DNA from: Patescibacteria group bacterium
Lineage (GTDB): Bacteria; Patescibacteriota; Patescibacteriia; Magasanikbacterales; GWA2-37-8
DNA length: 64,000 nt
Assembly: GCA_041651015.1 (NCBI GenBank)
Contig: JBAZKA010000001.1
Location: forward strand, 62,000 to 125,999
Direction of reading: 5' to 3'
Under the pieces are notes generated by a model. That model saw nothing but the letters and a program-made list of their open reading frames with translations, was not told the origin of the DNA and ran no database searches. This document shows positions 15,560-60,614 of this stretch, piece by piece (position 1 is the first letter of the stretch; each line of letters opens with the position of its first letter). Made by a program: the position numbers and the translations under genes.

Positions 15560-15588
15560 TTGACACCCCTTCATAATTTTGATAAAAT
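15560..15588 (+). promoter_or_regulatory. Sigma70-like promoter upstream of the ECF sigma gene
   Basis: TTGACA, 17-bp spacer, TAAAAT. Confidence 0.45.
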
Positions 15589-15679: not shown

Positions 15680-16240
15680 ATGTCGGGAAAAATAACAGAA
15701 AAATTACTGTTGTACCGATTACAGACCAAACAGGATCCGGACGCATTTGCCGAACTCTATGATCTGTACGTAAAACGAATTTATCGGTTCGTTTTTTTTA
15801 AGGTATCCGGACACGAGGAAGCCGAGGATATTACGTCCGATGTTTTTCTCCGAGTTTGGAATTACATTGCCGAGGGCAAAGACATAAAAAGTTTTAGCGG
15901 ACTTTTGTATCGCACGGCGAGAAATTGCATCATTGATTTGTATCGTTCAAAATCATACCAAGCGAATCCGCTTTCCATATCCGAACTTCCAGAAGGAATT
16001 GAGCCGAGCGACTTGGGAGTGGCGGCCGATAAAATTACGGCCGGAGCCGATGCCGGTAAAATCATCGCTTCCATAAAAAGATTAAAACAAGAATATCAAG
16101 AAGTGCTTACTTTGAAATATGTTGACGAATTGTCCGTGGAAGAAATTTCCGAAATCACGGGCAAAGGAAAAATTTCGGTGCGGGTCACTCTGCATCGCGC
16201 GCTGAAGCGTTTGAAAATTATAATAGATACGAAGGTGTAA
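15680..16240 (+). CDS. ECF-family RNA polymerase sigma factor (sigma-70 regions 2 and 4)
   Basis: 186 aa; region 2 (YRFVFFKVSGHEEAEDITSDVFLRVW) and region 4 HTH (LTLKYVDELSVEEISEITGKGKISVRVTLHRALKRLK). Confidence 0.85.
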   Translation: MSGKITEKLLLYRLQTKQDPDAFAELYDLYVKRIYRFVFFKVSGHEEAEDITSDVFLRVWNYIAEGKDIKSFSGLLYRTARNCIIDLYRSKSYQANPLSISELPEGIEPSDLGVAADKITAGADAGKIIASIKRLKQEYQEVLTLKYVDELSVEEISEITGKGKISVRVTLHRALKRLKIIIDTKV

Positions 16241-16246
16241 AAAAGT

Positions 16247-17569
16247 ATGGCGAATAAATTGATCGGACAACTTAAAGATTTGAAACGTTCTGATGTGTCA
16301 CCGAGACCCGAGTGGTTAAAATCCAGTCGGGCGCGCTTGCTGTCTCAGATCAAAAATACCGTGCCGACTGAAGAATTGGGTGTGTTGGATAATTTATGGT
16401 TTGGTTTGTCAATTTTAATGCCGCAAAAATTTGTTTTTAATTTTGTCCGTCCTCTGGCCGTACTACTTATAGTGGCTCTCGTCGGCACGAGCGGTTGGAT
16501 TGCCACCGTGGACGCGGCTTATGAAGCTGTTCCGGGCGACTGGCTGTATCCGGCCAAACGCGCGGTGGAAAAAACTCAAATTACCACGGCGGTAATTATG
16601 GGCGCCAAGAACACTGAGACAAAATTGCATTCGGAATTTGCCAAACGCCGAGCCACGGAAATAAAATCCGTGATGAAAAGCGATATGACAGATAAAAACG
16701 AAAAAGTGACCACTGCGGTGTCTGATTTAAAAAATGAAATCAAATCAGTCAGCGATAATTTGGATGAATTAAAATCCAATGGCACGCAAGGCACGGCCGA
16801 GACTGCCAAAGCGGTGCAAAGCAATGCCGAGCAAATTAAAGTTGTGTTGACGGAGATTAAAGATGATTTGAATACCGGCACCTCAACTTTGGAAACAAAA
16901 GTAATGGCCAAAGAAATCGGCGAGGCCAAGGATTTAACCAAAGACGCCAATATAAAGGTGGTGGAAGTTTTGATTGCCAAACATTTGGATGGTGATGTCA
17001 CTAAAGAAGAAGTGACGGCGGCCATTGACAAGACCATGCAAAGCGCGGTGGACGAAGCCAATGTCACCCAGCAAAATGTGCAAAATATGAACACGGCCGT
17101 GACTGCGGCCGGAGCTGTGCCGGGTGTGACCGTGTCATCCAGTCCATCAACCGAAACGATTGGTAGTGTGGCCTCAACCACTGGTGCGGCTGCGGTGAAG
17201 ACTCATGAAGCGGCGGCCGAACTCGGCAAACAAGTGACTGAAATTAAAAGCTTGGTGGAGAGTGGAAATTTGACCGATGCGGTTAATATAATGAAACAAG
17301 CCAATGAAACCAGCAAAGAAATGGATAAATTGCAGGATACCACTTTAGTCGCGGCCCAGACTGTTTTGCCGACTCCGGTGGTAAACGAAGTAAAAAATTC
17401 CACCACAGAAGTGGCGCAAACCATCGGAGCGTCAACTACGATTCAAGTGATTGTGTCCAGCACAACCCAAGCGACTGAGCCGGGTAAATTGCCGGTGACT
17501 GTTATTGTCACCACCACGCCGGCGTCATCCAGTCCGAGCGCGACAGTGTCAAGTACGACGAAGAAATAA
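16247..17569 (+). CDS. Candidate membrane-spanning anti-sigma factor / DUF5667-like protein
   Basis: 440 aa directly downstream of the ECF sigma (7-nt gap); cytoplasmic N-terminal ~60 aa, one TM, long Thr/Ala/Val/Lys-rich coiled-coil-like extracytoplasmic region. Confidence 0.4.
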   Translation: MANKLIGQLKDLKRSDVSPRPEWLKSSRARLLSQIKNTVPTEELGVLDNLWFGLSILMPQKFVFNFVRPLAVLLIVALVGTSGWIATVDAAYEAVPGDWLYPAKRAVEKTQITTAVIMGAKNTETKLHSEFAKRRATEIKSVMKSDMTDKNEKVTTAVSDLKNEIKSVSDNLDELKSNGTQGTAETAKAVQSNAEQIKVVLTEIKDDLNTGTSTLETKVMAKEIGEAKDLTKDANIKVVEVLIAKHLDGDVTKEEVTAAIDKTMQSAVDEANVTQQNVQNMNTAVTAAGAVPGVTVSSSPSTETIGSVASTTGAAAVKTHEAAAELGKQVTEIKSLVESGNLTDAVNIMKQANETSKEMDKLQDTTLVAAQTVLPTPVVNEVKNSTTEVAQTIGASTTIQVIVSSTTQATEPGKLPVTVIVTTTPASSSPSATVSSTTKK

Positions 17570-22914: not shown

Positions 22915-24063
22915 ATGTTTTCCAAACCCAAAGGCTTTATCGGCGTTGACCTTGGCGCCGGCGGAGTCAAAATTGTTGAATTGCGCGAAGAAAAAAAGCG
23001 TCCGGTTTTGTATACCTATGCCCTGACTTCAGAGTCTCAGGATGTGCATCAGCTGTTGGCCGAAACCCGGGAAAAACTTTTGGCGCCGGAAGCTGTGCAG
23101 ATTGAACAAAAGCAAAATATCCGCGGAGATAAAAAGGCCGCGCCCATGGTTGACGCATCTGACGCCAGAGTACAAAAATACGCTGACACGCTTCATGCCG
23201 CCTGTGTCGCGGCCAAAACTTCATCCAAAATCGCGGTCGGAAGTTTGCCCGTGTCCGCGGTGTTTCATTCTATTGTCACCATGCCGGCGGTTGATGCCAA
23301 AGAATTTTTGGGCATTCTCAAGGCTGAAGTGAAAAAATTATTGCCTTATTCCATTGACGACATGGTTTTGGACTATCAGGTGTTGGAATCATTTTCCACG
23401 GATAAGGTCAAAAAAATAATGGTTAGCGCCGTGCCCAAAGCCATCGTGGAATTTTATTCAAAAGTTTTCCGCCGGGCCGGTTTGACCTTGGAATCATTAG
23501 AGCCGGAATCAATGGCCTTGTCGCGCTCGCTCATCGGCCGGGACCGCGCCGTCACCATGCTGATTGATATGGGCGCCGAGCGGACAAACTTTTTTATAAT
23601 TGATGAAGCCATCCCGATTACCAATCATTCTATTGAATCAGGTGGTAATAAAATCAATCGCTTGATGATGTCCACACTCGGGGTTGAAGAATCCGAGGTG
23701 CCACAAATCAAACACGACCTGTATCAGCGTTCGCTTGCGGGCAACGGCACAATTGACCGTAAAACATTTATTGATTTGCTTATGCCGGTCATTGATCCGA
23801 TTGTCAAACAAATTGAATACAGCTTTGGCGTTTATTTTAACCAAACGGGCAACGAACAAAAGAAGCCCGAGAAAATTATTTTGACCGGCGGTGCGGCCAT
23901 GGTGCCATATCTGGCGGAATATTTGGCTGATTATTTTAAAATTAAATGTTATTTGGGCGACCCGTGGGCGAGAGTAGTACATCAGGACAAATTACAACCG
24001 TTATTAAATGAGATCGGGCCGAGAATGTCTATTGCGATTGGTTTGGCGCTCAAGAATTTATAA
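22915..24063 (+). CDS. pilM: Type IV pilus assembly ATPase-like protein PilM (actin fold)
   Basis: 382 aa; N-terminus FIGVDLGAGGVKIVEL and overall PilM/FtsA-like pattern. Confidence 0.8.
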   Translation: MFSKPKGFIGVDLGAGGVKIVELREEKKRPVLYTYALTSESQDVHQLLAETREKLLAPEAVQIEQKQNIRGDKKAAPMVDASDARVQKYADTLHAACVAAKTSSKIAVGSLPVSAVFHSIVTMPAVDAKEFLGILKAEVKKLLPYSIDDMVLDYQVLESFSTDKVKKIMVSAVPKAIVEFYSKVFRRAGLTLESLEPESMALSRSLIGRDRAVTMLIDMGAERTNFFIIDEAIPITNHSIESGGNKINRLMMSTLGVEESEVPQIKHDLYQRSLAGNGTIDRKTFIDLLMPVIDPIVKQIEYSFGVYFNQTGNEQKKPEKIILTGGAAMVPYLAEYLADYFKIKCYLGDPWARVVHQDKLQPLLNEIGPRMSIAIGLALKNL

Positions 24064-24064
24064 T

Positions 24065-24469
24065 ATGTTAAAGAAAATTCATCAATCCGGTAAAATCCAA
24101 AGCGTCCTTCTGGTTGAATCAGATGAATTTCTGGCCGATATATACGCCAAGAATATTGAGATGGAAGGCTTCCGCGTGGTCAAGGCCGTCAACGGAGAGC
24201 GGGCGTTGGCTCAATTAAAAAATAAAGAAATTGACCTGATTCTTCTCTCGGCCACTTTGCCCGGCATGAATGGTTTTGAAGTGCTGGCTGAACTGAAAAA
24301 TGACAAGAAAACCGCGTTTATACCCGTTATTTTGCTGTCAAAACTCGGAGCCAAAGAAGACGTAGAAAAATCCCGCGAACTTGGCGCCGAGGCCTACATT
24401 ATTAAGTCGCATTTCCGTCCATCCGAGATTGTGGATAAAATTAAGAAAATACTATTCAAAAGGATTTGA
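24065..24469 (+). CDS. Stand-alone response-regulator receiver (CheY-like) domain protein
   Basis: Receiver pattern VLLVESDEF ... DLILLSATLPGMNGFEV ... PVILLSKLG; the ORF track start at 24008 overlaps pilM, and the ATG at 24065 fits. Confidence 0.7.
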   Translation: MLKKIHQSGKIQSVLLVESDEFLADIYAKNIEMEGFRVVKAVNGERALAQLKNKEIDLILLSATLPGMNGFEVLAELKNDKKTAFIPVILLSKLGAKEDVEKSRELGAEAYIIKSHFRPSEIVDKIKKILFKRI

Positions 24470-24523
24470 ATTTGGTATAATGTATCCAACTATGAAAAAC
24501 AACTATCGGAAGGGGGTGAATTT

Positions 24524-24970
24524 ATGAATAGGAAAGGTTTCACTTTGATTGAGTTGTTGGTTGTAATTGCCATTATCGGTTTGTTGTCCACTCTCTCGGT
24601 GGTCGCTTTGGGTTCTGCTCGTCAGAAATCCCGCGACTCCAAGCGTTTATCGGACTTGAAGCAGGTTCAAACCGCGTTGGAATTGTATTACACTGATAAC
24701 AACACATATCCGACCACGACCGTAACCCTCGGTACCACTGATGCCAAATGTTTGGGCACCAATGGTTTCCACGCCACAGGTGGTTGCTCGGGCACCACTT
24801 ATATGGGTCTTGTCCCGACCGAACCGACACCGGGAGGCACCGGTTATACGTATACCGGAGCGTCTACAACTTTCAGCATCACTGCCACGCTTGAGAGCGC
24901 GGTCAATGATTTACGCGCTGGAGGAATTATTGCTACGCAAAACGGTATCGTCAACGCTTCGTCCACCTGA
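24524..24970 (+). CDS. Type IV pilin / pseudopilin
   Basis: Prepilin leader and N-methylation site MNRKGFTLIELLVVIAIIGLL; Cys pair near the C-terminus. Confidence 0.85.
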   Translation: MNRKGFTLIELLVVIAIIGLLSTLSVVALGSARQKSRDSKRLSDLKQVQTALELYYTDNNTYPTTTVTLGTTDAKCLGTNGFHATGGCSGTTYMGLVPTEPTPGGTGYTYTGASTTFSITATLESAVNDLRAGGIIATQNGIVNASST

Positions 24971-24990
24971 TGATTTATAGGTCATAAAAT

Positions 24991-25026
24991 AAAAATCCTT
25001 CAGCCTCGTGTTGAAGGATTTTTATT
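24991..25026 (+). terminator. Rho-independent terminator after the pilin gene
   Basis: AAATCCTTCA-gcctcgtgt-TGAAGGATTT followed by TTTATT. Confidence 0.75.
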
Positions 25027-25079
25027 AACGAGGGATATTATTGAAATTTTAATGGGGTTGGGCTATAATTAATTGTATT

Positions 25080-25862
25080 ATGGACCAAATTGAACTTCTT
25101 CTTAAAGTCATTTCCGCCTTTGTTATTGGCGCTTGCATCGGCAGTTTTATCAACTGTCTGATTTGGCGCCGTAACAACAATATGCGCATTACCAAAGGAC
25201 GCAGTCAATGCGTGCATTGCGGGCGAACTTTAACCTGGTATGAAAATATTCCGGTTTTGAGTTTTTTTTGTTTGCGCGGACAGTGCCGGACGTGCCACAA
25301 GCCGATTCCGAAATATTATGTGATCGTGGAATTTTTTACCGGTATTTTATATGTTTTAGTTTTTTGGCTGGCCGTCTCGCATTATCAAAATGATTGGATT
25401 GTGCTGACGCGAGATTTGTTTTTTCTGTCCGTCCTCATGATAATTTTTGTGGAGGATTGTATTTATCAAACCATCCAGTCAGAGATTGTCTGGTTGGGGA
25501 TTATCGGCGGTTTTATCTTTAATTATTTTCTCGGCGTGTCCGCTCTCAATATGGTGTTTGGCGCGGCCATCGGCTGTGGTTTTTTTCTTATTCAATACAT
25601 TATTTCCAAAGGACGCTGGATTGGCGGCGGCGATGTGCGCATGGGCGGTATGATGGGCGTTTGGCTGTGTGCGCCATCGGCCCTGCTCGCGATTTTTTTT
25701 GCCTATGTCCTTGGCGCGTTTGTTGGTATATTTCTTCTTCTCGGCCGCAAGCGCGGGTGGAATTCGGCTATTCCTTTTGGACCGTTTTTGGCCTTTTCCA
25801 CTTTTTTGGCGTTATTTTTTGGGCAGCCGATGATTGATTGGTATTTGAGATGGTTGATATAA
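25080..25862 (+). CDS. pilD: Prepilin peptidase / N-methyltransferase (A24 family)
   Basis: 260 aa; N-terminal Cys tetrad (CxxC...CxxC) plus polytopic membrane domain typical of PilD. Confidence 0.85.
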   Translation: MDQIELLLKVISAFVIGACIGSFINCLIWRRNNNMRITKGRSQCVHCGRTLTWYENIPVLSFFCLRGQCRTCHKPIPKYYVIVEFFTGILYVLVFWLAVSHYQNDWIVLTRDLFFLSVLMIIFVEDCIYQTIQSEIVWLGIIGGFIFNYFLGVSALNMVFGAAIGCGFFLIQYIISKGRWIGGGDVRMGGMMGVWLCAPSALLAIFFAYVLGAFVGIFLLLGRKRGWNSAIPFGPFLAFSTFLALFFGQPMIDWYLRWLI

Positions 25863-42258: not shown

Positions 42259-42287
42259 TTTACTTTTAACTTGCCGCGAAGCGGCGG

Positions 42288-42681
42288 TGGAGATGGCGAG
42301 AGTCGAACTCGCGTCCAGATGGCCACGCCACAGCCGTCTACATGCTTAGTTCTCTTATTTTTAACCAAACTGTATTCAGAGAACGAAAATTCGTTTGGCG
42401 TGCCGGCTTTGCCTTTCAATTACTTCACCTCCGGCTCGGTTGGTAATCTACGCCTGATGATTTGCGCCGCGTTTAGTTACCAGGTGTGGCTAAGGCGACG
42501 GAAGCGGCAATTAAGCCGCGACAGGAGCAAAACTCATCGCCGGGCTAAAAGCTCGAGCAATGGATGTTTTGACTTTTGAAAATAAGTTGGCACTTATTAT
42601 TTGGTCCATGTATTTACGAGGGTTGGACCGACCTCGGCATGCGAACTATAACGCCGGTCTCTGTCAAAGCCCGGCATCCCC
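42288..42681 (-). ncRNA. ssrA: tmRNA (ssrA)
   Basis: Minus strand starts GGGGATGCCGGGCTTTGACAGAGACCGG... and ends ...GGACGCGAGTTCGACTCTCGCCATCTCCA (tRNA-like T-arm and acceptor). A candidate tag ORF beginning at nt 91 reads GCC AAC ... GTC GCG GCT TAA (ends ...FAPVAA-stop). Lies 2 nt downstream of the smpB stop. Confidence 0.85.
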
Positions 42682-52424: not shown

Positions 52425-52681
52425 ACATTTATCCGGGCGCTTGAATAAAATCCGTATCCTACCTTTACGGAATCAAGCGCCCTCCTCACCTTTGAACATA
52501 AGATTTGTTTTCAGAGGCGAGAGAGAAAAAATATATCAAAAAACTCAGCCATAGCGGCCGAGTTTTTTGTTTGAAGTTTTGTATTTTTACTTTTCAGAAA
52601 ACTTGTGTTGCCACCAGTGTTCTGAAGAGCCGAGGACGAATTCGTGTGAGTGAATTCGTCCTCGCAAAGAGCTTGGCGCCA

Positions 52682-53113: not shown

Positions 53114-53328
53114 CTCGCACCGCGCGAGATGTTCACGTTCAACGGCAAAAATTTTAAAGAACAGAATAATATATCACAAATTGGATTATTTGTCAAATGC
53201 CCCGGGCTCGGCAGATAGAGTGAGGGTCTTGCCCCCGTCACCAATAATAAACATCTATTTGCAGAAAAATCGTTACTGACGACGAGTAAATGCAATATGC
53301 AAATATATTCCCAAAATTGGTGAGGGGC

Positions 53329-53357
53329 TTGACAAAACCCTCAAAATGTGCTATACT
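53329..53357 (+). promoter_or_regulatory. Sigma70 promoter (family member 2 of 4)
   Basis: TTGACA, 17-bp spacer AAACCCTCAAAATGTGC, TATACT (TGc extended -10). Confidence 0.6.
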
Positions 53358-53363
53358 GGTTTT

Positions 53364-53470
53364 AATAAAATTCAAATTGACTTTGATTGCGCAACGAGAG
53401 AGGCGCGGTCAAAGCCCGAAAAAGCCTGAAATATATTTATCGGACTCTCTCATTGTAGAGAGTTTTTGTG
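53364..53470 (+). ncRNA. Candidate small RNA: promoter-proximal ~105-nt unit ending in a GAGAGAG/CTCTCTC hairpin plus T-run (copy 1)
   Basis: CGAGAGAGGCGCGGTCAAAGCCCGAAAAAGCCTG...CGGACTCTCTCATTGTAGAGAGTTTTTGTG, immediately followed by a second identical-type promoter; similar cassette at 57479-57600. Confidence 0.4.
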
Positions 53471-53498
53471 TAATATAAGCCAATCAGGAGGTAGAATG

Positions 53499-53527
53499 TT
53501 GACAAAATAGGCAAAATGTGCTATACT
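53499..53527 (+). promoter_or_regulatory. Sigma70 promoter (family member 3 of 4)
   Basis: TTGACA, 17-bp spacer AAATAGGCAAAATGTGC, TATACT. Confidence 0.6.
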
Positions 53528-53729
53528 TTCATGTTAAATTACAAACAGTTTTTCACCCAATCTTGCGCCTTCTAACAGAGCGGACGCAGGCAGAGTCAAA
53601 AACTCTGGCAGTGAAGCTCTTTTTACTTACAAGGCAGGAATAAAATAAAAAACGTTCGCTACAAAATGGCCGGCCACGGGTCGGTCAGGAAAGCCCTGGC
53701 TCATAGAGCGGGGCATAGGAGAGACGAAG

Positions 53730-54818
53730 ATGAAGACGAAATTGGCATTTGCGATTTTCGCGATGGTGATGGTGGCGACGGGGTCGGCAATGGCGCAATG
53801 GGCGCAGGAGCCGATGGACGATCTAAAGACCCTGCAACAGTGCAGGGCATCGTTCAAAAACGTGTGCGCGCCCTGCGCAAGCGTTTTCGCTTCCGGCCAG
53901 CTGAGTGCCACGTGCACCATGGAAAAGGCACAGGCGTGCGGCGAAGTCTACACCGGCATCTGCGGTCAGACCGCGAAAGCCGCTGCGACAACGTCGCCGT
54001 CCGTGCCGCCGAAGTGCGACGACAGATGTAGGGAGCGTCGCAAGGCCCGACAGGAAAAGTGGAATGCGCTCTTCCTGGACATGGCGGACCTGAAGGTCCG
54101 CGTGGCCGCCCTGGAAAGGAGAGCGGACGAGAACGACACACGCGACGCGGCGAATGCCGCGCACGACAGCGACCAGGACAACCTGATTGCTGGTCTTCGC
54201 AAGGACGTGGACGGCCTCCTGGATTGTCATGGTGAAAATCCGAAGGCGGGTTGCCACCAGGCAATTGAGGAGCAGATCGATGAGGCGAAGAAGGAGGCGA
54301 TGGACTACACGGATATGATGTTCATATCCACCGCCTTCAAGTTCGACCTCGGAGCGGTCGTCCTCGGCTCCACGGATTTCCGAGGGGTTGGGATCATAGC
54401 TGGCGGATTGCGCATTGCTCTTGACTTCGGCGCAACCGATCGGTTCCGTCCCGTTTTCCACGCTTCGGTTGGCGGTGGTCACGGACGGTGGGCAAACGTG
54501 GTTTGGGAAGTCGGCACTTCCCAGGAAATTCGTGTTAACGACAAGGGGACTGTCTGGCTAGGGCCGGCGGTCACCTGGTCACACGAAAACGTCCTGGACG
54601 CCAACTACAACACGTTCCTCGGCCTCGGCCTCTCCCTCAGAGTGTTGTTCCCCGAGAGCCACCACGGGTATTTTACCGCGGCGGTCTTCGGCGGTGACAA
54701 CATGTACTTCGTCCCGGACAAAACGGGCGAGTACGATGAGGTCATGGCCCATCACTTCGGAATTGGGATCCAACTCTCGGTTGGATACTCCATTTTCCAA
54801 GACCTCCGCAAGAAGTAG
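53730..54818 (+). CDS. Secreted protein: signal peptide + Cys-containing N-region + coiled-coil + C-terminal beta-rich domain (paralog of 51087-52424)
   Basis: RBS GGAGAG; MKTKLAFAIFAMVMVATGSAMAQ signal peptide; same architecture as 51087-52424. Confidence 0.5.
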   Translation: MKTKLAFAIFAMVMVATGSAMAQWAQEPMDDLKTLQQCRASFKNVCAPCASVFASGQLSATCTMEKAQACGEVYTGICGQTAKAAATTSPSVPPKCDDRCRERRKARQEKWNALFLDMADLKVRVAALERRADENDTRDAANAAHDSDQDNLIAGLRKDVDGLLDCHGENPKAGCHQAIEEQIDEAKKEAMDYTDMMFISTAFKFDLGAVVLGSTDFRGVGIIAGGLRIALDFGATDRFRPVFHASVGGGHGRWANVVWEVGTSQEIRVNDKGTVWLGPAVTWSHENVLDANYNTFLGLGLSLRVLFPESHHGYFTAAVFGGDNMYFVPDKTGEYDEVMAHHFGIGIQLSVGYSIFQDLRKK

Positions 54819-55007
54819 TAGTTCTCCTGTCTTTTACGGTCAGGGTATTCGCAAGAATATCCTGACCGACCTTATCTTGATCAAAAATGGTTTTGGTCAA
54901 GTAGGGGAAAATACTTAGTTAGTTGCTTGACAATTAAATTAAGGGTTAGAAAAACGTTCGTGGACAAAGCCAGCGCGCGGCGTTGGTTTCAAAAAAGGGA
55001 GAACAAA

Positions 55008-56378
55008 ATGAAGAAGTTTTACGGAATGATGATTGTTGCTATGATGGCGGTCGGATGCAACGAAGGCTACGGCATCGGCGATAAGTTTTTCGCTGAAGTC
55101 GACGCCGGTTCGGACACCGACACGGACACCGACACCGATACGGACACGGATAGCGACAGCGACACCGATTCCGATACGGACACGGACACCGACACGGATA
55201 CCGATACCGACACCGATTCCGATACGGACACGGACACCGACACGGATACCGATACCGATACGGATACGGACACGGGCGAGTGCGAGGATGGTGAAGAGCA
55301 GTGTGACGGAAACATGGTTCAGGTTTGCGGCGACGACCACGAGTGGGCGAACTGGGACGAGTGTCTCGCGTCTGCTCACAAGGAGTGTGTCGAGGCCAGC
55401 TCGACCTCCGCGAACTGCGACTGCGTCTCCGGTTACCACCTGTCCGCAGGCAACTGTGTCGCGGACACGGTCGTGATCTGCACCGCTGGCTACGAGGAAT
55501 GTGACACGGATGGAAACGTTCTGGTTTGCAACTCGGCCGGCACTGCGTGGGTGGTGGACGACACTTGCCTCGCCACGAACCATGAAGAGTGTATCGAGGC
55601 CAGCTCGACCTCCGCGAACTGCGACTGCGTCTCCGGTTACCACCTGTCCGCAGGCAATTGTGTCGCGGACACGGTCGTGGTCTGCACGGCCGGCAACAAG
55701 GAGTGCGACACGGCCGGCAACGTTCTGGTTTGCAACTCGGCCGGCACTGCGTGGGTGGTGGACGACACTTGTCTCGCCTCCGCTCACGAGAAGTGCGTCG
55801 AGACCAGCTTGACCTCTGCCTCGTGCCAGTGCGTGGATGGGTACTATCTGTCCGTGGGTGTCTGCATCGCGGACACCGACACTGACACCGACACTTCGGT
55901 CGAATGCACGGACGACGGTGGCGAGTGCGCCTTGGGTTACGAATGTAAGGCGGGGCATTGTGAAATGCCCTGCGACTGGGAGAACCCTTGTGACATGGCC
56001 TCCGGTTTAGAATGCTTTTTGACCGGCAAGGATCCCGACCAGAACTGGAAGTTCTCCGGGATCTGTCTTCCCATGCCGGCGGCAACGGGCGAATTCAGTT
56101 CCGTATGGTACTACGACATGGAACTGGAGAACGATGAGGACACGGGTACGTGTGCGTATTACGATACGTACTCTCCGTCCCCGACGGAGTACTCGTCGCC
56201 AGACACCGCCGCGGCCAGCATCATGTGCACCGATAATTCGTCGGTGCCGTGGGTCATGGAGGGCGAGTTCGAAGATCCGAGCACGTCGTCCGCTCGGACC
56301 CACCTGATCGCCCACGGCGATCATAACCACCAGATGACGACTTTCGGGCGTATCCTGTATACGCCCCCCGTCCTCTGA
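55008..56378 (+). CDS. Lipoprotein with (Thr-Asp/Ser-Asp)n tracts and tandem EGF-like Cys-rich modules (ORF track from 54927; Met at 55008 with GGGAG RBS)
   Basis: Lipobox MMAVGC; ~55 residues of TD/SD dipeptide repeats; two and a half near-identical modules containing CDCVSGYHLSAGNC (CxCxxGYxLxxxxC, EGF-like). Confidence 0.6.
   Translation: MKKFYGMMIVAMMAVGCNEGYGIGDKFFAEVDAGSDTDTDTDTDTDTDSDSDTDSDTDTDTDTDTDTDTDSDTDTDTDTDTDTDTDTDTGECEDGEEQCDGNMVQVCGDDHEWANWDECLASAHKECVEASSTSANCDCVSGYHLSAGNCVADTVVICTAGYEECDTDGNVLVCNSAGTAWVVDDTCLATNHEECIEASSTSANCDCVSGYHLSAGNCVADTVVVCTAGNKECDTAGNVLVCNSAGTAWVVDDTCLASAHEKCVETSLTSASCQCVDGYYLSVGVCIADTDTDTDTSVECTDDGGECALGYECKAGHCEMPCDWENPCDMASGLECFLTGKDPDQNWKFSGICLPMPAATGEFSSVWYYDMELENDEDTGTCAYYDTYSPSPTEYSSPDTAAASIMCTDNSSVPWVMEGEFEDPSTSSARTHLIAHGDHNHQMTTFGRILYTPPVL
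55110..55275 (+). repeat. Hexanucleotide (GACACN/GATACG)n microsatellite encoding the TD/SD tract
   Basis: About 27 consecutive GAYWCN hexamers visible in the sequence. Confidence 0.9.
55357..55760 (+). repeat. Tandem ~200-bp near-identical direct repeats encoding the EGF-like modules
   Basis: 55360-55560 and 55570-55760 align with few mismatches. Confidence 0.8.
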
Positions 56379-56486
56379 CATGTTCTTTGAGCCTCGAATT
56401 CCTTTCGAGGTATATGCCCGGGCAGAGCTTATCTGCCCCAATCATATGGCATCATTTATCTCTCAAATGATCCCAGATGTAAACAA

Positions 56487-56518
56487 AAAACTCCGATTCG
56501 TCGGAGTTTTTTGTTTGG
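56487..56518. terminator. Bidirectional terminator between the lipoprotein gene and the methyltransferase gene
   Basis: AAAAAACTCCGA-ttcg-TCGGAGTTTTTTGTTT. Confidence 0.8.
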
Positions 56519-57449: not shown

Positions 57450-57478
57450 TTGACAAAAACTCTAAAACATGCTATTAT
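57450..57478 (+). promoter_or_regulatory. Sigma70 promoter (family member 4 of 4)
   Basis: TTGACA, 17-bp spacer AAAACTCTAAAACATGC, TATTAT. Confidence 0.6.
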
Positions 57479-57700
57479 ATGATGTTAAAATTAAAGGGAC
57501 AAATGCACGCGATTTGACGGTGAGAGAGCCGTAAAATTCGCATAAATTTGAAAAAACTCTCTCACGGGAGTTTTGTTTGAGTGGAGTTGTCGCTCGGATG
57601 CAAATTGTATCAAAGCGACAGGGCCGCCCCCTCAACATGGGTATATCATAGTCATGTTGAGGGGGTTGCTCTCCCTATGCCTTTGCGTTTTATGCGCGTG
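57479..57700 (+). ncRNA. Structured leader / candidate sRNA copy 2 plus a 13-bp perfect hairpin
   Basis: GTGAGAGAG...CTCTCTCACGGGAGTTTTGTTTG is analogous to 53395-53470; hairpin CCCCCTCAACATG...CATGTTGAGGGGG at 57622-57664. Confidence 0.4.
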
Positions 57701-57817
57701 GCCAAAAGAGTTTCTTTGACAATTTAATTATTGGATTTAGTTAGTTTGAGATAAGGAAAACAACCAAATGCGATTTTGGAAATCGCAAAAGATTCCGGAA
57801 ACGGAATGGAGGAAGAA

Positions 57818-60490
57818 ATGGAAAAGAGATTTTTGTTTTGTTTCGTTGCCATCGTCGCGGCTATCGCGTGTTCGCCGAACACACGAGAGCCCCATCAGTC
57901 GGTAGTGCCGCCGGATTCAGATTCGTCTACGTCCGACACGGATACCGACACCGACACGGACACAGATTCCGACACAGATTCCGATTCGGATAGCGACAGC
58001 GATTCCGACACGGACACGGACACCGACACCGACACGGACAGTGATTCGGATACGGACAGCGACACGGATACGGATTCGGACACAGATTCGGATTCGGATA
58101 CGGATAGCGACACGGATTCGGACACGGACGTGGACGCCGGCACGGATGCCGGCACCGATGGCGGGACCGATGGCGGTCTCGACGGCGGTTCGGATACCGA
58201 CACGGATACGGATAGCGATTCCGATTCTGACACAGACTCGGATAGCGACACGGATTCGGACGCCGGAACCGACGGTGGCGTAGAGCCGACCGAGTGCTCC
58301 AGTGGCGTTTGCTGCGACACGGTGACCGGACTCTTCAAGGACGATACCGTCATTTGCGGGACGTCGTTAGAGTTGAGGTGCGATGACACCGGTTGCAGCG
58401 CTGACGTTAGGAATGCCTACGTCATTACCAGCTGTCCCGGATATTCCGAGGACTGCGAAGGAATAGAGGAGGTGTTTACCAGCAGCGTCGTGGACGACTG
58501 CGGTGACAATGAAACCTGCGAAGCTTCCACCGCTCTCTGCGTCGAATGTGAGTTCGGCTGTGAAGACGATTCCTTTGGAGTCGGAACGTGCAGCGAAGAA
58601 CCCATCGTCATTGACGCCGGAGTGGACTCCGGAACTTCGGACACCGACACCGACACGGACAGTGATTCGGATACGGACAGCGACACGGATACGGATTCGG
58701 ACACAGATTCGGATTCGGATACGGATAGCGACACGGATTCGGATACGGACGTGGACGCCGGCACGGATGCCGGCACCGATGGCGGGACCGATGGCGGTCT
58801 CGACGGCGGTTCGGATACCGACACGGATACGGATAGCGATTCCGATTCTGACACAGACTCGGATAGCGACACGGATTCGGACGCCGGAACCGACGGTGGC
58901 GTAGAGCCTCCGACCGAGTGCGTGGCTGACGACCCGTGCTGTGACAGCGAGGGGTTCTACCTCGCCAACGGCACCGAGTGCGACGGTGGTACTGTGCTCT
59001 CGATCTGCGAGAGCGGGTACTTCTGTGACGGCGTCGGCGATTGCATGCTCGAGTACGTCCCCGCGTCGGACAATAAGGTCTGCGATAGCGATATCGCCGA
59101 CCTTTGTGACGCCGTGGATTACTGCGACGGTAGCGGAGGTTGCCCAGACGCGGTCCTGTCGTACGGCGATGATTGTCATGCATCCGAAGGGGCGTGTGAC
59201 GTTCAAGACATCTGCAACGGGCTCGGCAAGGATTGTCCTGATGAGCTTCTCGTCGGCGATACCTGCCGACCGGCCGTTGTTGGTGGATGCGACATCGCGG
59301 AGACCTGTTCTGGTTCTTCTCCGGACTGTCCGGCTGACGTGGTTGCTTTGGCAACGACTGTCTGCCGTGCGGCATCCGGGGTTTGCGATAAGGCCGAGAA
59401 CTGCACAGGCAGTTCGGCTACTTGCCCGGCGAACACGTTTGAGTCGGCCGCCACAGTGTGCGCGTCCAGTTACGTGTATCAGTGCAACGGCAATCTGTGC
59501 GGGTCCGATGCTCAACGGCGTCTGGTGAGGCAGTATTGTACTGGTAGCGCGGCTGCTTGCAGTGGCACTATCTACTACAACCCCTGGACCACCATCGCCA
59601 ACTGCGACGCATCGGCCATCTGCATTTCCACTTCTACCTCAGCCATGTGTTCCGAGTGCGGTTACGCTTGCCAGGACATCCCGGCAGGGACGTGTGTTGG
59701 TGAAGAAGGACAGCCGTGTGCCGAAGCTCCTTTCGAGGAGTGCGAAAGCGACGACCTGTTCTGCGACACCGACGACGTCTGCAGTGATGCTCCGGACGGC
59801 GGCATTGCCGACGGTGGCGTAGACGGTGGTTCCGATACGGACACCGACGCAGATACCGACACGGACACGGATACGGATAGCGATTCGGACACGGATGCCG
59901 ATGCCGGCCTTGATGGCGGCTCGGATACGGACACCGATAGCGACACGGATTCCGATTCCGACAGCGATGCCGGTACTGACACGGACACTGAGACTGACAC
60001 GGATACCGACACGGGCACCGAAGGAACTTTCTGTCTTGAAAAAGCAGACTGTTCCGAGGGAGAGTACTGCAATCTGGAGACGAGCCTCTGTACGCTCGTG
60101 CCGGAGTTCCCGTTACCTGCGGGACAGTACTTCTATTGCTGGGGATACAACATCACTCATGATCCCAGCAATGTGGTGTCGCAGTGCACGACAAGCTCTA
60201 CTTCCACTTGCACCTACTACGATCCGGCGGCGTCACAGCAGTATTCCGCCACGGTGTCGCTCTACTGCATCTTGGATCAGTACGGCACCACGTCCACCCC
60301 CACCTGTCCCGCGGTGCAGGACATCGGCGAGTGTTGCATCTCCGGGCAGACTGATTTCGTTGCGCGGTACGCCGCGCCGGAAGAATGCAACGACGCTGAC
60401 ACGGACAACGATCCGGTTGGTGGATGTTCTTCCTACCGCCAATGCTTGAGGGGAAGTGATGGTCACTTCCTCGCCGAAGGCCTGTTCTAG
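57818..60490 (+). CDS. Large lipoprotein with three (TD/SD)n-GTDGG tracts and multiple Cys-rich repeat modules (ORF track from 57776; Met at 57818 with GGAGGAAG RBS)
   Basis: Lipobox VAAIACS; Asp-rich dipeptide tracts; ~24-aa Cys motifs (CDxxxxCDGxGxCPD) repeated at least 6 times; about 890 aa. Confidence 0.6.
58021..58905 (+). repeat. Two ~270-bp near-perfect direct repeats (58021-58290 and 58636-58905) inside the lipoprotein gene, each largely composed of GAYWCN hexamers
   Basis: The two copies differ at about one position by eye; a third related tract lies at 59823-60020. Confidence 0.9.
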
Positions 60491-60614
60491 GCCTTTCCCG
60501 CCTTGTTCTAAAAAATCCAATAATCCGTTCATTCCCAAAAATAGCCCCGGACAGTCCGGGGCAATCACCATGAAATCGTCTTGACTCTCTCCTTGACGAT
60601 TTCAGTTGATATAC

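Follow-up and report, generated by a model that had tools for sequence, protein, structure and literature searches.

In the window, by which we mean the whole 64-kb stretch of DNA that was analysed, putative regulatory RNA elements flank a beta-barrel gene and two giant lipoprotein genes. For the product of 53730-54818, a signal peptide, long helices and, at the C terminus, an 8-stranded beta-barrel are predicted, the barrel resembling NspA, OmpW, Ail and OmpX (Foldseek E 2e-5, TM 0.64 to 1p4t); the pLDDT of the model is 70-86 in the barrel and low elsewhere. Patescibacteria are generally thought to lack an outer membrane, and an outer-membrane-type barrel is unexpected in a metagenome-assembled genome with the label Patescibacteria, which may be loose. 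The two lipoproteins (55008-56378 and 57818-60490) have long Thr/Ser-Asp repeats and Cys-rich modules. Elsewhere in the window are type IV pilus genes (PilM, pilin, prepilin peptidase; 22915-25862) and a gene for an ECF-type sigma factor (15680-16240) that has its own consensus promoter at 15560 and is followed by a DUF5667 gene (16247-17569); the products of the latter two may be a sigma/anti-sigma pair.

Only four relatives of the beta-barrel protein were found among 5.8 billion proteins. The contigs of these four, together with one reached via the neighbouring methyltransferase gene, gave four further metagenome lineages: L002 (with L003 and L031) from ENA, L004 and L032 from JGI and L030 from Logan. 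Comparisons were made across these 4-5 closely related lineages, and the loci in all four further lineages are syntenic with the window. The large lipoprotein gene contains an exact 271-nt direct repeat (58017-58287 / 58638-58908) in its Thr/Ser-Asp region, which is likely a hotspot for length variation; its orthologues have 522 aa in L002 and 569 aa in L003, and the L002 assembly has an N gap there. The features of the locus are as follows.

53329-53357, forward strand: P1, promoter of c1 (-35 TTGACA 53329-53334, TG 53349-53350, -10 TATACT 53352-53357; conserved in L002, L004 and L032)
53364-53468, forward strand: c1, a predicted free-standing RNA of ~105 nt (start placed from the -10 element; fold z = -3.6)
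53381-53414, forward strand: hairpin HP1 of c1, a 12-bp stem (53381-53392 / 53403-53414) with the loop AACGAGAGAG
53444-53467, forward strand: weak terminator of c1, hairpin 53444-53463 with CTCTCTC as its 5′ arm and T5 at 53463-53467 (-9.4 kcal/mol)
53499-53527, forward strand: P2, promoter of c2, extended -10 type
53499-53729, forward strand: P2 and c2 (leader of gene 53730-54818), related to c1 and c3 but more diverged (UUGCGC...AGAGC...GCUCU)
56447-56475, forward strand: utr2, 3′-UTR hairpin of lipoprotein gene 55008-56378, loop AUCUCUC
57450-57478, forward strand: P3, promoter of c3, extended -10 type
57485-57578, forward strand: c3, a module with the same architecture as c1 that opens the large-lipoprotein leader
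57517-57520 / 57529-57532, forward strand: stem of hairpin HP1 of c3, loop TGAGAGAG, extendable to 57509-57541
57553-57578, forward strand: weak terminator of c3, hairpin 57553-57574 with CTCTCTC(AC) at 57557-57565, then TTTTGTTT
57579-57817, forward strand: structured leader from the c3 terminator to the lipoprotein ATG (57818)
60571-60604, forward strand: utr3, 3′-UTR hairpin of lipoprotein gene 57818-60490, loop UUGACUCUCUCCUU

The units c1 and c2 were found in L002, L004 and L032, and c3 in L002, L004, L032 and L030. An exact-pattern scan for GA...CU...terminator over 185,579 species-representative genomes found the family in none of them; the two matches, in Prevotellaceae and Oscillatoria, lie inside coding DNA and are attributed to chance. 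A metagenome scan with the neighbouring methyltransferase returned 23 loci, all with at most 51% identity and none with the cassette, and more distant methyltransferase homologues sit in unrelated glycosylation clusters. Two scans of viral contigs gave no match, which argues against c1 and c3 being a phage element, and no sign of mobility or phage origin was seen at either.

The three promoters are near-identical (TTGACA-N17-TATACT/TATTAT with an extended -10 TG) and have the form TTGACAAAA-N5-AAAAYRTGCTATWMT. Their common 29-nt pattern has three matches in the window against 0.02 expected. P2 begins 23-31 nt 3′ of the c1 terminator in four lineages, which bears out the claim that the first copy is directly followed by a promoter of the same family. 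With nine TTGACA-N14-TGN-TATNNT sites in the 64 kb, near-consensus promoters are widespread in the genome and the promoter alone is not special. An A/T-rich block at +1 to +20 (TGTTAAAATTAAA-like) is common to four promoters of the locus and hints at a common operator or 5′ element. The fourth is a divergent consensus promoter on the reverse strand (53196-53168) that would drive the gene for a 127-aa Cys-rich membrane protein (53065-52682); the leader of this gene (53196-53066, reverse strand) has kept its nucleotide sequence in L004 and L032 and, over the first 20 nt, is similar to the A/T-rich beginning (TGTT..AAAATT) of c1, c2 and c3. It could be argued from these observations that the locus has no function at the RNA level, the strong promoters having terminators behind them that are incidental or act as insulators, or the conserved blocks being operator sites on the DNA: near-consensus promoters are many, and the A/T-rich block at four of them could be such an operator.

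The original prediction had described a duplicated cassette, and the cassettes at 53329-53468 and 57450-57578 each indeed consist of a promoter, a hairpin with GAGAGAG, a terminator with CUCUCUC and a T-run. In c1, GAGAGAG occupies 53396-53402 and CTCTCTC 53445-53451, with 42 nt between them, and a 30-nt linker separates HP1 from the terminator hairpin. In c3 the heptamers are at 57522-57528 and 57557-57563, 28 nt apart; an A-rich linker is followed by CTCTCTCAC within the terminator hairpin. The heptamers had been taken for a long stem enclosing ~35 nt. Their presence was correctly seen, the spacing was not; the stem itself has only one-sided, pair-preserving changes and none that is compensatory, and in the lowest-energy nested fold GAGAGAG lies in a hairpin loop instead. 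Both terminators are hairpins followed by a U-run and are thus intrinsic terminators by definition (7-8 bp and U5-6 in c1, 8-9 bp and U4GU3 in c3).

The c1 RNA is the most conserved sequence in the locus. Between the window and L002 it is 94.3% identical (99/105), whereas the methyltransferase gene has 85.5% DNA identity and 63.5% at fourfold-degenerate sites, and the beta-barrel gene 68% DNA identity; to L004 the identity of c1 is 81%. Conservation spans the whole 105 nt. For c3, identity to the window is 90% in L030 and 72% in L002, as compared to 56% at the fourfold-degenerate sites of the methyltransferase gene between the window and L030. Both units are under purifying selection, c1 most strongly. 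With a promoter and a terminator of its own, and with 94% identity against 64% at neutral sites, the independent transcript of about 105 nt that had been proposed for c1 is credible. A 62-codon open reading frame overlaps c1 (53290-53478), starts upstream of the promoter and lacks its start in L004; the differences between the window and L002 within it comprise one synonymous and four nonsynonymous changes. To judge from this, c1 does not look coding.

The original prediction was to be abandoned if the paired regions were not conserved in homologous loci; they are conserved, the stems covarying around invariant heptamers. The fourth pair of the c3 HP1 stem is A-U, U-A or C-G depending on the lineage, the outer stems are wholly different (GCGA/UCGC, AAUUU/GAAUU, GCUG/CAGC), and the loop between them is UGAGAGAG or UGGGAGAG. 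Hairpin and U-run are kept at c1 and c3 in all lineages, but they have been rebuilt. The c1 terminator of L004 and L032 retains a hairpin with a different loop and pairing register, and in the c3 terminator of the same lineages the stem is ACCU/AGGU and the CUCUCAC block lies in the loop and not in the stem. Since this block was shifted into the loop and yet kept, it must be conserved for more than the terminator stem. Covarying stems around fixed loops are a signature of RNA structure; together with conservation across all 105 nt of c1, terminator hairpins that L004 and L032 have rebuilt in another register, and GA and CU heptamers that are complementary in every copy, they make a locus of promoters or operators without any RNA-level function highly improbable.

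How closely c1 and c3 are related is a separate matter. Hairpins with G[AG]GAGAG in the loop are found only at c1 and c3 on both strands of the 64 kb, and each is followed after 28-42 nt by CTCTC. GAGAGAG occurs ten times on both strands of the window against 1.7 expected, and 4/10 are in the two cassettes. The combined pattern has exactly two sites and none in shuffled sequences, a comparison in which the pattern was written post hoc and is not independent. c1 and c3 can be aligned only over ~40 nt of promoter and in the motifs; their HP1 stems carry the same loop heptamer but have unrelated sequences. When five c3 sequences were made into a covariance model, it found only c3 in the window and did not detect c1 at E <= 10, so that homology of c1 and c3 is not demonstrable by the model. 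The proposed small RNA family therefore holds for motifs and architecture and fails where the c3 model misses c1: as far as the sequences tell, it is a family by shared architecture and motifs, not by homology demonstrable over the full length.

The two heptamers are invariant, and GA and CU are complementary in every copy. In c3 all eight long-range GA:CU pairs are intact in 5/5 sequences; six of the eight never vary, two vary on one side and none changes on both sides. The four changes seen in c3 (A to G in the loop; AC to GU and C to U after the CU block) are transitions that keep the pairing via G-U. With neither heptamer varying, there are no compensatory double changes. RNAalifold gives the GA:CU helix as the consensus of c3. 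This duplex of 7-9 bp (-10 to -21 kcal/mol) shares bases with the terminator's 5′ arm. The terminator hairpins of c1 and c3 amount to -5.6 to -10 kcal/mol, as compared to -24 and -22 kcal/mol for the gene-end terminators at 54837 and 60611. Eight of nine sequences have hairpin plus terminator as their nested-folding minimum, and termination is thus likely the default. As in an attenuator, the alternative GA:CU pairing would sequester one arm of the terminator. It could form with HP1 kept: an H-type pseudoknot of loop and CU block appears geometrically feasible, with a loop 1 of 1-3 nt, a loop 2 of 0 nt and an A-rich loop 3 of 24-30 nt as read from the sequence.

Further evidence comes from the region downstream of c3. 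From the c3 terminator to a TTGACAATT box at 57716, a stretch of 140 nt, 8/36 predicted pairs are compensatory across five lineages. We found no promoter-like site between P3 and 57716, and RNA of this covarying leader would accordingly come from P3 across the c3 terminator. We infer that this terminator is probably read through, be it leaky or conditional, and an attenuator upstream of the large lipoprotein gene, suggested originally for the second copy, is credible for the same reason. The argument would be weakened if the conserved TTGACA box at 57716 were an unrecognised promoter, which it might be; however, a consistently spaced -10 was not found for it in the five lineages, and its half-spacing varies between 9 and 16 nt among lineages, which is not like a -35/-10 promoter. 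The box, TTGACAATT...GG(G/A)TT(T)AG, is conserved 80-100 nt upstream of both lipoprotein starts (54927-54950 and 57716-57740). The leader also has a 13-bp hairpin (57627-57665), which other lineages keep as a pairing but with another sequence, and the block GCUCUCCC (57668-57675), which is invariant; in L004 and L032, the c3 loop GGGAGAGC is complementary to this block.

On these grounds c1 and c3 probably control transcription termination or RNA pairing. The reading we prefer, with a probability of roughly 45%, is that they are lineage-specific, promoter-proximal RNA modules acting as switchable intrinsic terminators. Each would consist of a strong sigma-70-type promoter, a hairpin that exposes GAGAGAG and a weak terminator that carries CUCUCUC. 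In the default state hairpin and terminator would form and an RNA of ~95-105 nt would be released. In the alternative state GA loop and CU heptamer would pair (H-type pseudoknot or antiterminator), thereby removing the 5′ arm of the terminator so that RNA polymerase reads on. GA loop and terminator 3′ arm would thus compete for the CU heptamer. c3 would gate transcription into the long, structured large-lipoprotein leader; for c1 the default product would be the 105-nt RNA, and read-through would add transcription across P2 and c2 into the beta-barrel gene. What tips the balance could be a protein, a ligand or a further RNA. This reading is supported by the same architecture in otherwise unalignable paralogs, kept in every lineage in which they were found (four for c1, five for c3, window included), and the weakness of the terminators relative to the GA:CU duplex energetically favours a switch. 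Against it stands the presence of P2, a full consensus promoter, behind c1 in every lineage, since the downstream gene does not need read-through from P1. Moreover, that two old paralogs have identical heptamers suggests an outside partner common to both and not pairing in cis alone.

Candidates for such a partner are CU-loop hairpins in 3′ UTRs of the same cluster, which, like a third relative, c2, go beyond the original prediction. The c2 leader is conserved in four lineages (53534-53729 in the window, 267-462 in L002, 387-599 in L004 and 1493-1701 in L032). Like c1 it has UUGCGC...GGCGC hairpin arms around a purine-rich loop, and its local CAGAG/CUCUG hairpin adjoins a AAAAACUCU block like the one in c3. 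The c2 helix AGAGC:GCUCU reads AGGGC:GUUCU in L004 and AGGAC:GUCCU in L032, the latter with two compensatory pairs; RNAalifold favours a competing helix, GCGGACG:CGUUCGC, with one compensatory pair. A U5 run at the end of c2 is seen only in the window copy. The leader has in addition a covarying hairpin directly 5′ of the ribosome-binding site.

The loop of utr2, AUCUCUC, is invariant in five lineages on a stem with two compensatory pairs, and is followed by an invariant CCCAGAUGUAAACAAAAAA and a covarying terminator (56485-56512). In utr3 the window and L002 have the same 14-nt loop, UUGACUCUCUCCUU, and the stem also has two compensatory pairs. Each of the two loops has 6-7 nt of complementarity to the GA loops, and on the forward strand of the window all intergenic CUCUC-loop hairpins lie within this 7-kb cluster. 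GAGAGAG at 52519 and a CU-loop hairpin within the coding sequence (54768-54786) were dropped since they are not conserved in L032 or L004.

A serious rival to switchable terminators is that c1, and maybe the terminated c3, is a small RNA that acts in trans; the GA loop, exposed on a stable hairpin, would pair with other CUCUC elements of the cluster, loop to loop (kissing) or loop to strand, the internal complementarity being secondary. The CU-loop hairpins utr2 and utr3 and the c3 terminator would be candidate targets, and the effect would be on mRNA stability or termination. By sequence c1 is an independent unit, with its own promoter and terminator and P2 directly behind. The reading accounts better for the free-standing nature and the strong conservation of c1 and for heptamers that are the same in both paralogs despite their divergence, as if all partners had to stay compatible; the invariant CU loops on covarying stems in both lipoprotein 3′ UTRs, with direct complementarity of 6-7 bp, are also in line with it. 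YUNR U-turn motifs occur in antisense-RNA recognition loops, and the utr3 loop starts with UUGA, which we take to be a motif of this type. On the other hand, there is no loop-to-loop covariation, and a search for contiguous complementarity between c1 and leaders or start regions gave only the shared GA/CU motifs and terminator tails (unrestricted RNAduplex runs of c1 against leaders returned meaningless full-length duplexes). Five-nucleotide CUCUC loops also occur by chance in coding DNA, and a function in trans leaves unexplained why the CU heptamer always adjoins the module's own terminator. We regard it as somewhat unlikely, yet as the main rival reading. Switchable terminators and a small RNA acting in trans are compatible with each other. 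A more far-reaching proposal, which we consider rather doubtful, combines them into an RNA-RNA circuit in which c1, c3 and the degenerate c2 address their own terminators and the 3′-UTR CU loops via one heptamer code.

If this circuit were true, it would coordinate the expression of envelope or attachment proteins and would be the first riboregulatory circuit described for the phylum; small RNA loops that address 3′-UTR loops would be unusual. Since Patescibacteria live attached to host bacteria, the way in which they control their surface proteins is central to their biology. What limits the significance is a very restricted distribution, five metagenome assemblies. Still, the locus offers a concrete, testable set of regulatory RNAs around the beta-barrel gene and the two giant Cys-rich lipoprotein genes, in a group (Patescibacteria, the Candidate Phyla Radiation) whose gene regulation was called "virtually unknown" in a 2024 perspective (PMC11665869).

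The Rfam search that had been suggested as a check gave no match for c1 or c3. At the gathering threshold, Rfam 15 retrieved from the whole window only the tmRNA and two tRNAs, and permissive searches on c1 and c3 gave sub-threshold chance matches only. One of these was the manA-II motif (RF04315), a riboswitch candidate of Leptotrichia (PMC11109978), with 17 bits against a gathering score of 100 and E = 0.53; it was seen only in the window copy and is absent from c1 of L004. The tmRNA (42286-42681, reverse strand) encodes an unusually long tag peptide of 26 residues, ANLFSKVKTSIARAFSPAMSFAPVAA. Just upstream of tRNA-Asp (40650-40576) lies a candidate for an unannotated small RNA (40899-40770, reverse strand), with a promoter that has TGAGGGGCTTGACAA upstream as at P1 and a ~95-nt imperfect hairpin (GAGCCCCGAAAGUGUU...GAACACUUCAGGGGC, -42.5 kcal/mol) followed by U6; it has no match in Rfam, permissive thresholds included. 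A partial copy of the 5′ part of tRNA-Asp (GGGTCGGTAGTTCAATCCCGAC...) directly precedes the tRNA at ~40710-40680 (reverse strand).

Among known systems, the pyr attenuators of Bacillus (PyrR, RF00515) come to mind, in which a hairpin with an AGAGAG(G) loop, an antiterminator and a terminator compete. By analogy, the GA loop could be the site of a PyrR-like attenuation protein; the bound hairpin would be an anti-antiterminator that lets the terminator form, and c1 would serve as one more regulated unit or, as a decoy, would titrate the protein. PyrR attenuators share this topology of hairpin, antiterminator pairing and terminator; the strict invariance of the loop is typical of protein recognition, and the c1 loop region CGAGAGAGGCG, with its core (C)AGAGAGG(C), resembles the core of the PyrR site consensus ARUCCAGAGAGGYU (PMC7430163). 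Unlike PyrR sites, however, c1 (CAACGAGAGAGGCG) matches only 10/14 positions of this consensus and c3 fewer, namely AGAGAG, and RF00515 did not match on 121 nt even at E <= 10. The genes downstream are not pyr genes but encode the beta-barrel protein and the Cys-rich TD/SD-repeat lipoproteins, which are surface proteins; neither PyrR nor another PRTase-like protein, nor ANTAR, CAT or other RNA-binding regulators were seen among the scanned window ORFs of at least 150 aa; and the c1 copy is free-standing with a promoter right behind. Binding of such a protein is thus distinctly unlikely.

In the preQ1-I, fluoride/crcB and ZTP riboswitches the 5′ arm of a terminator doubles as the 3′ partner strand of a hairpin loop, this strand has an A-rich linker in front of it, and termination is the default, all of which would apply to switchable terminators at c1 and c3 as well. 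In contrast to these riboswitches, c1 and c3 match no Rfam riboswitch model, have no evident conserved ligand pocket, precede genes that do not suggest a metabolite, and are restricted to one narrow lineage and one cluster. They match no RNA family described and are lineage-specific. The antisense RNAs RNAI/RNAII of ColE1 and CopA/CopT have in common with c1 and c3 short stable stem-loops with loops of 6-8 nt complementary to the loops of the target; c1 and c3 differ from such kissing-loop RNAs in that they are not antisense to their targets, which would be the 3′-UTR hairpins. As in the case of SreA/SreB of Listeria, the terminated leader product could also act in trans.
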